Source: Massalongia carnosa (Eukaryota). Taken from it: a stretch of 64,000 bases of DNA. Below are positions 16,931 through 59,404 of this stretch, in pieces (positions within the stretch are counted from its first letter, which is position 1; the number at the start of each line of letters is the position of its first letter). A model generated the notes under the pieces. It had not been told where the DNA came from and searched no databases. It saw only the letters and a list, made by a program, of their open reading frames with translations. The DNA lies in NCBI GenBank assembly GCA_965645245.1, contig OZ287074.1, positions 1 through 64,000 on the forward strand. Reading direction: 5' to 3'. Position numbers and translations under genes: made by a program.

Positions 16931-17344
16931 CGGTGTTGATGCTGGGACGAATGTTCTCCAGTGCTCTTGACTGGGGACCCTTATTCGTCCAGATCTTCGA
17001 GGTTCGATGGGCTGGCGAGGAATGTCCTCCACTTCATCGGAGTCACTCCCCCCCCCATTCTCCTCGTCGGTGTTGATGCTGGGACGGATGTTCTCCAGTG
17101 TTCTTTGACTCGGGACCCTTATTCGTCCAGATCTTCGAGGTTCGATGGGCTGGCGAGGAATGTCCTCCACTTTATCGGAGTCACTCTCCCCCCCATTCTC
17201 CTCTTCGGTGTTGCTGCTGGGACGGATGTTCTCCAGTGTTCTTTGACTGAGGGCCCTTATTCGTCCAGATCTTCGAGGTTCGATGGGCTGGCGAGGAATG
17301 TCCTCCACTTCATCGGAGTCACTCTCCCCCCTATTCTCCTCTTC
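16931..17344 (-). repeat. 138-bp coding tandem repeat x3 in the integrase-RT linker
   Basis: EEENGGESDSDEVEDIPRQPIEPRRSGRIRVPSQRTLENIRPSSNT three times; a single unit in copy 1 (about 10913-11050). Confidence 0.93.
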
Positions 17345-50651: not shown

Positions 50652-52566
50652 TACCACCAACATGACCCCACCATTTAAACTCCAAAATCTTAATTTTCCT
50701 AGATATTCCCTACACCAAAATCCTAACATATTTTTATAATTTGGTAGACACATATATATATTAAGAGTACGGATACGTGGACACCCCTTTGGTTACCTGG
50801 ACACCCCCTGAGGTTACCTGGACACCCCCCAGTGATACACGGACACCCCCTTCCTAGAATAGGTAAGAATCAAGGGTTCAGCCCCCTCACTTACCCACTT
50901 CGGGGTAAGCTCCCGGGCGCATATCGGGGAAATTTTTTCCTTCACCTTTTGAAAGTGGTCGGGAATTTCTGAAACGAAGTCGATTGGCACTGGCTTTGCA
51001 AATCAGACTCTGATTCTAGAAACTAAGCCTCATTTGGTCTAATTAATGATGATAACCTCCTCATCTCCGCTTGCTGTCGCTGTCCCCCCCCCCCTGTCGC
51101 CGTCCCCGCCTCCGAGTCATTTGTAGTCAGCCTATCTGCCAATCCCCTTGTTATAACCCCTCCTCTAGCCCTACCTCCCCGTCCCCGTCCCCATCCCGAT
51201 CCCCGTCCCCGTCTGCCTCGTCCATGACCAGGTGCCGGGTCCGCTCGATGAACGGCTGATTGATCTGCATCCGGGTCCACCCGCTCGAAAAGGGAAGGAT
51301 TACGATTAGTAGATGCCTCGAATGCTTGCTGTCTTCTATTCAAATTCTCCGCACCTGGAGGTCTGCCCCTTGGTCTAGCAACTTCGGGTGCCTGAACCCG
51401 AAGATAAGGATTATCAATAGCCACACGGGCTGTCCTATCAAACCTCCAATGAGGATGAATATCTTCCAATAGCAACTTTCCCCCCCCATCCCCATACAAT
51501 CGTTCCTGAATCTTATGACTGCACGGAAGACCCATGGTTAAACTGAACGTTCCAGTACAGGCCGGAATAGCTGTTGGTTGACCAACCAAACGTTCGTATT
51601 GAGGCATTATCTTTCTCAAAGCATAGGAAGTGACGTATGGACTGATTTCCTGAAAGCTAGGTTTGCGAATATCCATAGGTAGTCGCACCTTCGCTTCATC
51701 AAGACGAATCAGATGATTGTGAAGTTCATTGATCAATAGAAGATTGATTCCGTCCACCACCGTCTTAAGATCTCTAGATGATGACCCTAGCTGTCGCTTA
51801 AGTACTGCATGCCCACCTTCACCTCGAGAGGTAGTGGTGGTTTCGAAATGAGTAATCATACTGGTATAGCACTTGACAAAACGATGTCGGAAGGGTATGT
51901 AGATGTCGTTTAGATATTCCACACATTGATCCTGACCCTGATACTGAATCCTGAATCGCTCCCATGACTCCAAAAACTCTGGTTCTGACGAGGCATAAAC
52001 GACCGTTTTCCAGTCAGCGAAGAAGGAGTCCCACGCCTCTTTGGTATCGAAGCTCTTCTTGCAATTGGTCAGGACGTTATTATTGATGTGCCATAAGCAA
52101 AGTGTTAGAATGTACAAATCAGGTTACTTCATTTCAGCCGCACTCACCTTCTACCGCACGAGTATGGCGCACGCTAATGGCTAGACGTATCGCTAGTCTA
52201 ATACTAGCATACCGTACATTGTCTATAAATCTAGCTATTCCCACTATATAGAACAACAGCAAGCGTTCTATCCTCTATCTACTATACTACCTTTTGATAG
52301 GTTATGAGCCCGGCCGCAGGGCGCCTCTTTACATGTGTTTGCTTGTCTTACTTTACCTACCCTAACACAAGCCTCCTTACCGTCGCAAACAATTACCGTC
52401 GCGAATAATCTCCTACAAAAAAATCCGACACAAATCGACACATATGAAACAGTCGGCAGTGTTTGAGATGGCTAAGCACTACTATCGGGCGCCCGGCTTC
52501 TTCTTTGCCCCTTACAAAACGAACGCTAACAAATATTTTAACAGGCACCTCCTTGCACTTCGTTTC

Positions 52567-52891
52567 GATGTCTCGGATGATCTACATTCCCCACAAAAAA
52601 CCGGGAATGTGACATCCAGATGTCTCGGATGATCTACGTTCCCAATAAAAAACCGGGAATGTGACATCCACTTCACTTTGATGTCTCGGATGATCTACAT
52701 TCCCAACAAAAAATCGGAAATGTGACATCCAGGTGTCTCGGATGATCTACATTTCCAATAAAAAACCGGAAATGTGACATTCACTTCGATGTCTCGGATG
52801 ATCTACATTCCCAACAAAAAACCGGGAATGTGACATCCAGATGTCTCGGATGATCTACGTTCCCAACAAAAAACCGGGAATGTGACATCCA
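52567..52891 (+). repeat. Six tandem hairpin units (about 52 bp) in the Copia E leader
   Basis: GATGTCTCGGATGATCTACATTCCCAACAAAAAACCGGGAATGTGACATCCA with variants, at 52567, 52619, 52680, 52732, 52788 and 52840. Confidence 0.95.
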
Positions 52892-53494
52892 TTGGGATGA
52901 AACCAAATCTCCCTGTAATCGATTTTGCCCTCTATTCATAGTCAGCATCTGCGTATCAGTTATAAGACTGCAGGATTATGGCTTCGAGCAACAAAAAACG
53001 CTCTCGATTTATCAACCCCAAAGGCACAACTAAACGCCTCAAATCTATCTTTGCACCTGCATCTGCTTCTGCGTTTAGATCTATTATATCAATCACTGCC
53101 CCATTCCTACGTGGCACTCTTGCCGAGATCCAATGACTCTCAGAGCCTCAACCAAATAATAGGCCGGCAACAAGGCTTGAACGGGATTCACAACATACAT
53201 TACAGGCGGCTAGTGCGGAAATCGTTGCTTTCTCTTAGAGGATAACTCAGATCAATCAAAATTGGATTGCTTTGTACCATCATCCCTGAGCCTCCAGTCA
53301 CTCCCGGTCAGTCCACATCAAAATCGGACCTAGAACCGCCCAGCGACTGTGATCCTTTCGATCTAAGAGCCAGAACCAAGTCACCAAGCACTTATAATAG
53401 CACTCCGTCGGAATCCGGTAAAACCAAACACCAGTTCAAGCCAGTCCGTTAACAAGGACAATCCATTAAGCTCTTCCAATAAACCCTTTCCATC

Positions 53495-56400
53495 ATGAGT
53501 GAAAAAATCTCTGGATCGGGGTCCTATAGCGCTATTGATAGGATCCCTAAGCTAGTGGACCACGAGGGTTATCCAGCATGGAAGCGAGCCATGCGAGATT
53601 GCCTCAAAATGATAGATCTTTGGATCTATTGTGATAACACCGAAGCTGCACCACGCCCAAACGCTCCCAATGATGGCTTCAACAAATGGAAAAAGGGCCA
53701 AGATAAGGCCTGCACTGCTCTACGATTAGCTTGTGAAGGAAATGCCTACACCGATATAGAAGACCATACTACTGCTTCCGTCGCCTGGGACCTGCTTGAG
53801 TCAAACTATAAGCCTCGCGGTTCGGGATTCCTCAATGACACCTTTAGAAAATTAGACAACCTTATCCTATCGGATTGCAGCAGCCCTGCAGACTACGTTA
53901 CCCAATTTCGCGCCACGGTGAATAAGCTTCGCACCTTCTCAAGCAAGCTAAGCCTGGACGAAAACTGGCTTATCTATCGCTTCCATACCAATTTAGGCTT
54001 CGAATACAACAGCTATTTCGAACGATACGCTCAGGATCATGATCCTTTCAATGAAATGGGTGAACCCAAGCACACGTTAAGTCAGGCTATGCAGCATTTC
54101 CAAAACACGGTGACCAACCCAAGCAAGTCCAGCGATAAGGCCGTAATCGCAATGGCAGCTGTTTCAAACGCTCAAACCCAAGCAGGAGCTCAACCCGGAA
54201 CAGCCCATTCTCGAATCATCACCAAGACCATCAAGTTCTGCAACCACTGCCGAAAAGACTATCACGTAGAGAGCGAGTGTCGTGAAAAATATCCACACCT
54301 CGTTAACCAAGACTCACAGCGTAAGTCCAATAAGCGTCGTAGGAATTCCAAAAGTCAAGGTCAAAGCCAAAAGCCAACCGGAAACAATGACTCAACCAAA
54401 GGAGCCTTCTGCGCCTACATGGCCACCGCAGATATAACCAAAATATCTAAGCTCTGGATCTGTGACTCTGGAACTAGCCAACATATTACCCACGATCGCT
54501 CCATCTTCACCTCATTCAAGACATCCGATTGCCCTCCAATTCAAGGTATTGGAGGAGTATTAATTCCCAAAGGAATAGGTAACGTCATGTTGCGGTGTGC
54601 CGGTAACGAGGGTCTTCGGGAGTTCCCTCTTTTCGATGTGTTATACGTTCCGGACGGAGGCCTAAATCTCATCTCCCAAGGACAATTACAACGAGATGGA
54701 TGTCCCCTGAAGATTGTACCAGAGGGAATTGAAATCGGGAACTATGGTATTATCGCTCGCCGCCAGGACAACAATCTGTATATCCTGAATATGTGGAACG
54801 TCTCTGAAGCCGCTCTCGCTCTCGCTGCAATTAATAGCGAGGCGATAAAAATGTGGCACGCTCGTTTAGGCGATCTTGGAAATCAAAACATTCTCAAGCT
54901 CGCTGGCATGTCAAAAGGAATGGACCTCACCAAGCCCCCGCCCCAAGACGCCTGTCCTCCGTGCGCCATCGCTCAGTCCCAAGTAGAACCACACCGGGCC
55001 CCCATCCAACCAGGCAAGCACCCGCTGGACTTAATTCACAGTGATGTCCAAGGACCTTTCCCAGAAGCCTTGAACGGCGCCAAATATATGGTGACCTTTC
55101 TTTGCGATTTCGATAAACGGTCCCACGTCACCTTACTGCGCGTCAAAAGCGGAGTCCTTCAAGCTTTTAAAAACTACAAGAAGCAAAATGAATATGGGGA
55201 CAAACGAATTAAGCGCTTGCGATCGGACTGTGGGGGTGAGTATGACTCCAAGGACTTCGAGAATTTCAGAAACGAGCATGGCATTCAGTGGGAACCTACC
55301 GTACCGGGAAATCCACCCATGAACGGGACAGCCGAGCGCCTAGGTCAAACGCTTCACAAGTTAGCCAGCACCATGCGAGAAGGCGCTAAACTAGACATCA
55401 AATATTGGGCTGAGATGGTTCTCACTGCCAACTACCTAAGAAATCGACAACCAACTGCGGGACGCTCCATCACCCCCTACGAGTCTCACACCGGCAGCCC
55501 ACCAGAACTAGGACATCTAAGGATAATAGGACAGACTGGCTATGCGCAAAATCGCAAGCCCTCCACCGGATGGAAGAAATTTCAGGAACGAGCCACCAAA
55601 TGTACTTTAGTAGGATACGAAGGCGATCACATCTATCGAATGATAAATCCACGGGGCGCGGTCATGCGTTATTCCAATGTTCAGTGGATAGATAACAACC
55701 CCCCAACTCCTCCTTCCTTATCATTCTCTCAAACTAAAAGAGCCCTACATGTTGGACAGTCAGGACCGCCCACAAGAAAGCAAAAAATTACCCATCATAC
55801 GGACTCCCCTCATACGGACTTAGTCGACGCTCATGAATCCATAGAATCAATTCCCACTGGACCTCTCCCATCAAACGCTGGAAAAGAGGCATTGGCAAAC
55901 CAACTGCCCATTGAGCCTTGGTCCCAGGCAGATATTCTCTCTAAGCATCCAAAACTTCGCGCCCCCTCGCCTGACCCGCTTGCTCTTTTGGCTCTTCTTG
56001 CTCGAGCCAATGACCCGGAGCCATACGAGCCTAAAACCTATAAACAGGCCGTAGATAGTCGGAAGGAAAAGGATTGGCGAAGGGCAATGCAGGAAGAAAT
56101 TGACTCTATCAACGAAAATGATACCTGGATCCTCACCTCCCTGCCCCCGGACCGCAAAGCCCTGCGAGGCAAATGGGTTTATAAAATCAAACGAGGCCCG
56201 GCTGGCGAGATTCTTCGTTACAAGGCTCGATGGGTAGTCAGAGGCTTTGAGCAACGTGAAGGCATTGACTACAATGAGACTTTTGCTTCAGTAGTGAAGC
56301 CAATGAGCTATAAAGCCATCTTCGCTATCGCTGCAGCCAATGATTGGGAAATCCACCAAATGGACGTAAAAACAGCCTTCTTGTACGGAAGGGTGGACGA

Positions 56401-57619: not shown

Positions 57620-59404
57620 ACCAGAAGCCCTTTGTCGTAAAAAATTCGACCTTAACCCAAAAAAAAAAAAAAAAAAAAAAGTATCACCCACAGCTGAGCC
57701 TGTGGGGGTGTTTTCGTACATCGCCAGCAGCATTAGCCTGCGGAGTACACTGACTCACCTGCAGGTGATCCACTGGGAAGCATGATATTATACTGGAGTA
57801 TGTGGGAGTTATTGAATTTCTCTTTATCATGTGGGAGTGCTATTTCAGTGCCTGAGTGGGAGTGTTAGAATGTACAAATCAGGTTACTTCATTTCAGCCG
57901 CACTCACCTTCTACCGCACGAGTATGGCGCACGCTAATGGCTAGACGTATCGCTAGTCTAATACTAGCATACCGTACATTGTCTATAAATCTAGCTATTC
58001 CCACTATATAGAACAACAGCAAGCGTTCTATCCTCTATCTACTATACTACCTTTTGATACAAAGCAGATGATTGGTTGCGGGGAAAACATCCTCAATTCC
58101 AGCTATCAGACTCTTTTCCATGTCCGTGACTATGACGATCGGGTTAGGAAGCATCATCCCATCATACATACCTCGCAATTGCTGCAACATCCAGGTATAA
58201 TCAGACGTGGCTTCCTTGGCCATGAAGCAAAATGCCACATAGAAGTTGGTATGTAGGGCAGTTTGACCACTGATGATCAATAAGGGCATCTTATATCTGT
58301 TGGTTTTGTAAGTGGCGTCCATCACCAACACCTCGTAATTCGTCTTCAATAGTCGTTGAGAACAGCCCTTAATAAAGAATAAATGAGTTATTCTATCTAG
58401 ATCATCCTTTTGCATCTGATACGTCCAATCTCCTTGATCCAGCTCTCGGATTAATGCCTGAACCGGAGTCAATGGGCCGAGTATCTCGCGACGAAGCTGT
58501 GCTTTGACGTTGTAGATATCCCGAGGTTTGAATAAGGGATTGATGATGTAGGGATTTTCTGGATCGTCAAAATTGATTCCCGTCGTCGGATCAGCAACAC
58601 GAAGACTAGATAAAATCTTGAAAGGGGCTGTTTGCACGATCAGAGCTCGGGAAATCTCACTTTTAACCTCTTTCGTCATCGCCAATTTCCTCAACGCTGG
58701 ATGAGCACCAGCGAGGGTAGAAGCATGATTATGAGTCGATTTGACCACCTCCAAAAACCAGATACCACTGTCGTTTTCTCGTGTGGCCACACAAGAGAAA
58801 GGGCATTTAATTCGTCGGCTACCCGTATGTCGCCGATCCTGACCTCTTGGTCCGTCGGTTTTTCTTCCTCGATCACATATCAGCCATGCCTTTCTTGTTA
58901 CCTTAAGTTTCGACTTCTTGGTTCGACCCAAAACGACTGCGTATCCTTGACGACCAGCATGCTCATTGACTCGTAGAACCAGGTCTTCCAGACTTTCAAA
59001 ACTTTGTCCATCCTCGGGGGGTGCAAGTCCGCCAGGGGGTAGAGGGCCAGGTGGTCGGGGTGGAGTAGCTGGTTCATTTTCGAGGGGTGCAAGTCCGTCA
59101 GGAGGTGGGGCAGGAGGTGGGGGGTCAGGAGGTGGTGCAGACATGATAAAATGTCAAAATGTTGGTGATGATGATGTTTACGAAGTGCCAAAATGTTGGT
59201 GTTTACGGTTGAAAAAAAAATTCCCGAGGTGCACCCTCGGGAGCTTACCCCGAAGTGGGTAAGTGAGGGGGCTGAAGCCTTGATTCTTACCTATTCTAGG
59301 AAGGGGGTGTCCGTGTATCACTGGGGGGTGTCCAGGTAACCTCAGGGGGTGTCCAGGTAGCCAAAGGGGTGTCCACGTATCCGTACTCTATATTAATCGT
59401 CAAT

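Follow-up and report, generated by a model that had tools for sequence, protein, structure and literature searches.

In the leader of an intact Ty1/copia retrotransposon, a family-specific internal tandem repeat was identified in which a two-unit block occurs three times and each unit consists of one imperfect palindrome (Table 1). The element lies within the 64-kb stretch of DNA that was analysed, referred to here as the window. Each unit is predicted to fold in the genomic RNA of the element, and the most likely role of the array, at a probability of a little over one in three (about 0.36), would be that of a cis element acting at the RNA level. This role is placed first because the array appears to be part of the genomic RNA, the predicted hairpins are stable and the A6 core of their loops is invariant. 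It is only slightly favoured over an origin as a neutral passenger of the element.

Table 1. Positions within the window of the array, its units and the features of the element that carries it
Feature	Position	Strand	Remarks
Target-site duplication CAAAG, left copy	52098..52102	+	Read directly; same 5 nt after the 3' LTR
5' LTR, 197 bp, TG start	52103..52299	+	100% identical to 57863-58059
TATAAA in 5' LTR	52224-52229	+	TATA box ~70 nt from the LTR end
Primer-binding site (PBS) GGTTATGAGCCCGG	52300..52313	+	Directly after the 5' LTR
Leader, LTR to gag ATG, 1195 nt	52300..53494	+	
Array, six 52-nt quasi-palindromic units as three dimers	52567..52891	+	
Unit 1	52567-52618		
Unit 2	52619-52679		
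Unit 3	52680-52731		
Unit 4	52732-52787		
Unit 5	52788-52839		
Unit 6	52840-52899		
Predicted hairpin of unit 1	52575..52617	+	5' arm 52575-52591, loop 52592-52602, 3' arm 52603-52617
Dimer 2 (units 3 and 4)	52680..52787	+	Most diverged; holds the unit 3 mismatch, and the double change and extra G-U of unit 4
Predicted extra hairpin	52986..53003	+	Stem of 4 bp, unrelated; loop 10-mer at 52990-52999
gag-pol ORF, 1374 aa	53495..57619	+	One CCHC knuckle at residues 249-262
Putative polypurine tract (PPT), purine-rich	57854..57862	+	Assigned by position alone, just before the 3' LTR
3' LTR	57863..58059	+	
Target-site duplication CAAAG, right copy	58060..58064	+	

Tandem Repeats Finder described 52567-52891 as a period of 52 repeated 6.0 times, and also as periods of 113 and 108 each repeated 3.0 times. 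The dimers are ~110 nt long, and a repeat search returned three 112-nt copies with 100, 90 and 96% identity. Units inside a dimer directly abut, each 52-nt unit ending in an unpaired A, and spacers follow unit 2 (CTTCACTTT) and unit 4 (CTTC). The array starts 268 nt downstream of the PBS, and its head-to-tail repeats lie in the non-coding internal region that runs from the PBS (52300) to the gag ATG (53495), as is the case for UTR tandem sub-repeats. The 17-nt 5' arm is found six times in the window (three exact copies and three with one mismatch) against 0.34 expected, with none of these copies outside the array.

From the outside inwards, the predicted stem of each unit is built of 5 bp, a step of 2 bp and a further 8 bp, giving 15 bp that are interrupted by two 1-nt bulges, both on the 5' side, and closed by an A-rich loop of 11 nt. 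The hairpins of units 2-6 share the register of unit 1. Within the loop, columns 29-34 (A6) are invariant in 6/6 units, and the loops as a whole are A/C-rich with no G and little U. Predicted energies of the single units range from -12.8 to -19.7 kcal/mol, and the whole array folds at -130.5 kcal/mol (z = -8.65), with 0/100 shuffles as stable. All six predicted hairpins remain when the full 1195-nt leader is folded. Both the palindrome and its repetition clearly exceed chance. The original prediction, made from the letters of the DNA, had described six hairpins at 52567-52891 in three dimers with an A-rich 11-nt loop, and this was borne out by both the repeat finder and the folding. Its CTTC-type spacers are those given above, and the ~1.2-kb leader between PBS and gag of an element with identical LTRs corresponds to 1195 nt and to LTRs that are 100% identical. 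A search of Rfam gave two matches with E = 0.25 and 0.77, far below gathering thresholds.

One more copy of the loop 10-mer that units 5 and 6 contain lies ~100 nt past the array, with 0.14 occurrences expected per whole window, where it is predicted to sit on the stem of an extra hairpin. That stem is within chance, given that stems of at least 4 bp are present at 2/5 A-runs of the element and at 7/28 in the background. A preference of the A6 runs of the element for flanking stems was rejected on the same counts, which represent no enrichment.

Across the six units, 11 substitution instances occur at eight columns. The unit variants named in the original prediction are all present: both arms of unit 4 are changed at columns 23/39, converting C-G to U-A, units 2 and 6 carry an A>G at column 20 that results in a G-U at pair 20/42, and unit 3 has a single A.C mismatch at 23/39. 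Unit 4 holds an additional G-U at columns 10/50 that had not been described before. In total, 89/90 pair cells are standard on the plus strand, and 5/6 stem substitutions preserve plus-strand pairing. Substitutions are distributed evenly between stems (6/180) and unpaired positions (5/132; p = 1). The claim of a compensatory change in unit 4 is upheld in that the paired change at 23/39 exists, but it does not exceed chance, as 147/500 shuffles match the covariation observed within the array.

The three changes at this one pair position fall in adjoining arms, the 3' arm of unit 3 and both arms of unit 4, and look templated rather than independent, a point in favour of the neutral origin. Template switching within inverted repeats is described as making or mending stems, and as introducing double changes in a single step, in the absence of selection (PMC8794818); compensatory-looking changes can arise by this process in a passenger array. 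Because the six copies descend from one palindrome, the number of hairpins is not replicate evidence and n is effectively 1, which counts against the RNA-level role. A RIP origin of the unit variants was rejected, since the C>T and G>A changes sit in CpC and not in CpA context.

Folding energy shows no strand asymmetry. The minus strand of the array folds at -127.1 kcal/mol (z = -5.2), compared with -130.5 kcal/mol for the plus strand, and the summed unit energies are -113.1 kcal/mol on the minus strand and -104.8 kcal/mol on the plus strand. At columns 20 and 50, stem changes confined to one side (units 2, 6 and 4) give G-U on the plus strand and would be A.C on the minus strand. This G-U bias is the sole hint of strand specificity and comprises too few events to weigh.

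The carrier of the array is an intact, multi-copy and recently active Ty1/copia element, and its host is probably a lichen-associated fungus. The structural features of such elements are present as direct LTRs, a 5-bp duplication, an adjoining PBS and a purine tract. Contigs from other sequencing runs break exactly at 52102/52103, the boundary of the 5' LTR. Pfam domains follow one another along the polyprotein in the order Retrotran_gag_2 (residues 34-153), Pol_BBD (321-403), gag_pre-integrs (427-493), rve (509-607), SH3_retrovirus and RVT_2 (875-1113). Integrase precedes RT in this arrangement (gag, protease barrel, integrase, RT), which is the order of the Ty1/copia elements (Pseudoviridae). 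Comparison of the polyprotein with viral contigs gave no match. The PBS 12-mer has five occurrences in the window (three exact, two with one mismatch) against 0.31 expected, and its primer is presumably the initiator tRNA-Met; no tRNA genes were found in the 64-kb window. In the 3' untranslated region of the element, a small A6-loop hairpin is followed by a run of 22 A, the two falling within 57635-57680. The leader is long for its neighbourhood: PBS and ORF are ~130 nt apart in another intact Copia of the window, and the leaders of the other Copias in the window, which measure ~130 nt or a few hundred nt, contain no arrays.

Further copies of the leader were found at 99+% identity in Logan contigs of four public runs from four studies, one run being labelled a lichen metagenome. 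In run X1, three of the pieces listed jointly span 52593-52778, from the loop of unit 1 to the 3' arm of unit 4, with 0 differences, and a fourth piece over unit 6 (52837-52889) also has 0 differences. In run X5, a piece covering 52696-52814 has 0 differences. These pieces are identical to the window and therefore share the variants of units 3 and 4, in keeping with the earlier expectation that other young copies would carry the array. Given the near identity of the copies in the four runs (99+%), a covariation test among them is without power. Run X1 has no depth on the left flank of the window, and the LTR there abuts a different flank; an array-bearing element therefore occupies another site in that run. 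Since new sites are reached only via the RNA of the element, the array would lie within the reverse-transcribed genomic RNA. There is thus good support for the array being part of this RNA and, as originally proposed, within the transcribed region. Judged by its position and by the flank in X1, the array would occupy the 5' portion of the full-length genomic RNA, as a Psi-like signal does. Beyond the LTR end, run X2 shows a number of distinct sequences, and the polyprotein is 99% identical to a protein cluster with 68 members, so the family is multi-copy.

Two candidate variants in these contigs were rejected. An A>G at 52718 in X2 and X4 would restore the unit 3 pair, but may stem from contigs of other units aligned to unit 3. 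An X2 contig with a 168-nt skip (52528 to 52697) was set aside given that its shorter side is only 27 nt.

The window itself is dense in transposon fragments, with at least four further Copia-like pol regions. The array-bearing Copia is nested in the ORF of a Mutator-like (MULE) transposase, which is split into 51023-52117 (-) and 58047-59144 (-), with FAR1 and MULE Pfam matches in the upstream half and inverted 21-nt sub-repeat arrays near both MULE ends (50774-50851 and 59302-59379). Contigs of X2, X4 and X5 run from one half of the MULE ORF straight into the other, with no Copia in between, and the MULE is multi-copy in these runs. At 16931-17344, an older minus-strand Copia contains a 138-nt x 3.0 array (95% matches) between its integrase and RT matches. 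Towards the start of the window, 28 copies of the telomere-type hexamer TAACCC occupy 1777-1946, with 1.7 kb of other sequence ahead of them.

A metagenome scan with the polyprotein yielded 31 loci with 29-53% identity in the best segment. For two of these, L001 (37% protein identity) and L002 (35%), upstream sequence was included. A leader query (window 52103-53600) matched the PBS site in L001, L002, L003 and L013, and beyond the PBS no informative similarity to this query was found in the 31 loci, the leaders of L001 and L002 included. Both loci have their PBS in common with the window element, very short LTRs and ~2.0 kb between PBS and gag. No comparable array was found in the leader of L001. 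The leader of L002 contains an unrelated array of 49 nt x 3.5 (2030-2200), which holds GGAATGT in 2/3.5 units and is not more stable than shuffles (z = -1.68). A covariance model of the unit, run on the window and L001-L031, recovered only the six units, with the next best match at E = 0.28. Closer relatives with 53-63% identity (P0003-P0006) are known as proteins only. Single matches to a degenerate 18-nt pattern of the 5' arm numbered 62 in prokaryote contigs, against ~69 expected by chance and with no array among them, and three in viral contigs; all were taken as chance. The array is absent or different among the related elements, a variability typical of UTR arrays, and on the sequences compared it appears to be a recent, family-specific addition.

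The leaders of L001 and L002 also contain a conserved extra ORF of 167 aa (L001 1653-2156) and 158 aa (L002 2469-2945), 67% identical between the two and with no Pfam family. It makes up the last ~450 nt before gag, overlapping the gag start, and 1.6 kb of ATG-rich leader precedes it. No homologue of this ORF was found in the leader of the window element.

In the favoured role as an RNA-level cis element, the six stem-loops, near-identical and placed at even intervals ~270-590 nt past the PBS, would form a multivalent platform. Each unit would present a 15-bp bulged stem and an 11-nt loop with an invariant A6, and the platform could be coated cooperatively by the Gag of the element, which possesses one CCHC knuckle, or by a host RNA-binding protein. 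Coating may then favour selection, dimer formation or packaging of the full-length RNA, with the number of units acting as a tunable dose. The array would most likely have grown by template switching or unequal recombination. Consistent with such a role, the array folds far better than its shuffles and the hairpins persist in the fold of the whole leader, pairing is maintained in all but one pair cell with one-sided changes that remain compatible with the plus strand, and the array is unchanged in the 99+% copies of four runs from a multi-copy family. The presence of a CCHC knuckle in Gag and the invariance of A6 point the same way, and the recurrence of the loop 10-mer in the leader adds a weak extra point.

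Several results weigh against the RNA-level role. The two strands fold about equally well, conservation is no higher in stems than at unpaired positions and the compensatory pair is within chance. The array is also absent from L001 and L002, the only relatives with reachable leaders, and the relatives of the family therefore package without it. The loops, free of G and poor in U, are unlike typical zinc-knuckle targets. On the plus strand of the element, no complement of the loop was found, all matches being the loops themselves viewed from the minus strand. Given that the loops are neither self-complementary nor provided with a plus-strand complement, kissing-loop dimerisation of the Ty1/HIV type is not indicated.

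The placement of the array is that in which Ty1 and retroviruses are described as holding their dimerisation and packaging signals (PMC4974528; PMC5454406). The TIPIRT region of Ty1, presented in these accounts as a pseudoknot with two hairpins whose complementary apical motifs serve dimerisation and packaging, resembles the array in that it belongs to the same superfamily, is located in the 5' genomic RNA near the PBS and contains hairpin units (PMC5454406; PMC4974528). However, as described there, the TIPIRT hairpins are single-copy, non-repeated, partly within gag and complementary from loop to loop, whereas the array consists of six near-identical hairpins with non-complementary A-rich loops in a non-coding leader, and the two have no sequence similarity. 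Repeated short stem-loops are reported to be common among viral packaging signals, and the repetitive structural motifs of RNA viruses, for which multivalent binding of capsid protein is proposed, resemble the array in that one short stem-loop, its loop conserved, is repeated, often within the 5' UTR (PMC8206606). The array has at least two copies of such a stem-loop, namely six units that share A6. In that account the viral motifs are conserved across lineages; the array is confined to one young family. In the mouse mammary tumour virus-type example (MMTV), a purine-rich, stem-borne loop in the leader near the PBS is documented as a Gag-binding site (PMC8096270), and purine loops may bind Gag here in a similar manner. 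The MMTV site is, in the cited account, a single bifurcated stem-loop with a G/A loop, unlike the A/C-rich, G-less loops that occur six times in the array. By analogy with these systems, the array could be an expandable, multivalent Gag-nucleation (packaging) signal built by tandem amplification of one A-loop hairpin, although this narrower proposal is doubtful.

A real possibility is that the array is a neutral passenger, in which one quasi-palindrome was amplified and the hairpins are a physical by-product with no selected role. Amplification could have taken place by slippage, by abnormal strand transfer during reverse transcription or by unequal recombination, with the initial quasi-palindrome possibly derived from a template switch and carried along in the master copy of a recent burst. 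Short tandem arrays in the UTRs of LTR retrotransposons are described as common and hypervariable, and are thought to be born during replication of the element (PMC7004042). The sub-repeats in the 3' UTR of Ogre/Tat elements are similar to the array in being short and variable and in occupying a non-coding internal region, and the array, like these sub-repeats, was plausibly generated during element replication (PMC7004042). The Ogre/Tat sub-repeats are found in the 3' UTR of plant Ty3/gypsy elements, whereas the array is located in the 5' leader of a fungal Copia and its units are 15-bp palindromes.

All measurements made here fit the passenger origin. Relatives differ from the window element, with no array in L001 and an unrelated, non-folding one in L002, and the other Copias of the window have shorter leaders free of arrays. 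The lack of excess stem conservation and of significant covariation, together with the equal folding of the two strands, is likewise as expected of a passenger. Against this origin, the 15-bp palindrome and the constant 11-nt loop are preserved in each of the six units and throughout the near-identical copies seen, and a successful family tolerates the array despite its 17 upstream ATGs. The preservation of plus-strand pairing by five of the six stem substitutions and the occurrence of the loop 10-mer outside the array are further points against it, though none of these points is strong.

A role at the DNA level is unlikely. Here the array would act as a downstream enhancer in the transcribed leader, each unit providing two inverted CATTCC sites of the TEA/ATTS type (AbaA/Tec1) around an A-tract, for a total of up to 12 activator sites that compensate for a very short U3. 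Drosophila copia reportedly serves as a source of enhancer activity, its enhancer being located in the leader. In the window element, the LTR measures just 197 bp and ends ~70 nt after the TATA box, and CATTCC/GGAATG is present in 7/12 arms, against 0.62 expected per whole leader, giving a cluster of several CATTCY motifs as expected of TEA/ATTS sites. The unrelated array of L002 also holds GGAATGT in 2/3.5 units. The AbaA motif is given as CATTCY (PMC3769392), and in Ty1, also of the Copia superfamily, Tec1/Ste12 sites that lie past the start codon are reported to be functional (PMC4619828). The likeness to these systems lies in CATTCC-type motifs downstream of the transcription start (PMC4619828; PMC3769392); the Ty1 account describes one or two sites within gag, whereas the array has up to 12 in inverted pairs, five of which are mutated in the core.

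The loss of the core motif in 5/12 arms argues against an enhancer. Substitutions in the CATTCC core amount to 5/72, compared with 6/240 elsewhere, so that the core has been substituted at least as often as the remaining positions, whereas 89/90 cells retain their pairing. This favours pairing over a DNA motif as the feature maintained, and so supports the RNA-level role. The palindrome also continues for 7 bp past the motif, which a monomer-binding TEA site would not need. No enrichment of the motif was seen in the rest of the element or in the relatives' leaders, and the match to it was made post hoc.

A translational gate is less probable still. In such a gate, six upstream ORFs (uORFs) over the hairpins would trap scanning ribosomes, and the full-length RNA would be a poor Gag messenger that is kept for packaging, or Gag would need re-initiation. 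Each unit reads as a uORF of 14 codons (11 in unit 4) that has three ATGs in frame and stops at a TGA in the 3' arm, the series occupying 52568-52885. Of the 24 upstream ATGs in the leader, 17 are in the array and seven outside it. The last 359 nt before the gag ATG (53136-53494) contain no ATG in any frame, for which local dinucleotide shuffles give a mean of 2.7 and P(0) = 0.03, and this stretch could mark the part of the leader that ribosomes actually scan. The idea of an internal promoter, suggested by the same stretch, is weakened, as the counterpart of the stretch in L001 and L002 is the extra ORF. The gate is likewise weakened in that this extra coding ORF explains the ATG-free stretch in those two loci. 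In addition, the uORF peptide is not conserved, with 5/6 variable columns in the uORF altering a residue, and seven upstream ATGs remain outside the array. The leaders of L001 and L002, which do not have this array, carry 28 and 18 upstream ATGs, and the lineage therefore already bypasses upstream ATGs by other means.

The silencing decoy offered in the original prediction, or a source of small RNAs, in which the hairpins are diced or titrate silencing factors, is very improbable: it draws its sole support from the repeated hairpins in a transposon transcript, the array has no Rfam family match, and its stems of 15 bp with two bulges are shorter than the duplexes of roughly 21 bp that Dicer products need.

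The finding is a modest one. No title in the literature searched on LTR-retrotransposon repeats, hairpins and leaders describes an array of palindromic units in a Copia leader, and to our knowledge the selection and packaging of RNA by LTR retrotransposons other than those of yeast are little understood. If the array is a passenger, it carries a caution, as strong fold scores and even 'compensatory' changes can come from tandem palindromes whose RNA structure is under no selection. The wider lineage, which has tiny LTRs, 1.2-2 kb leaders rich in upstream ATGs and, in part of its members, an additional ORF ahead of gag, may hold interest for longer than the array itself. Should the array be a functional hairpin platform, it would provide a simple and dissectable example, with 0 to 6 near-identical units, of a cis-acting RNA element born from repeat amplification. 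Were it specifically a Gag-nucleation signal, the number of units would set the success of a copy against siblings competing for Gag, the array would be the first modular packaging signal, tunable through copy number, to be described in an LTR retrotransposon, and template switching would be a route to new cis-acting RNA elements.
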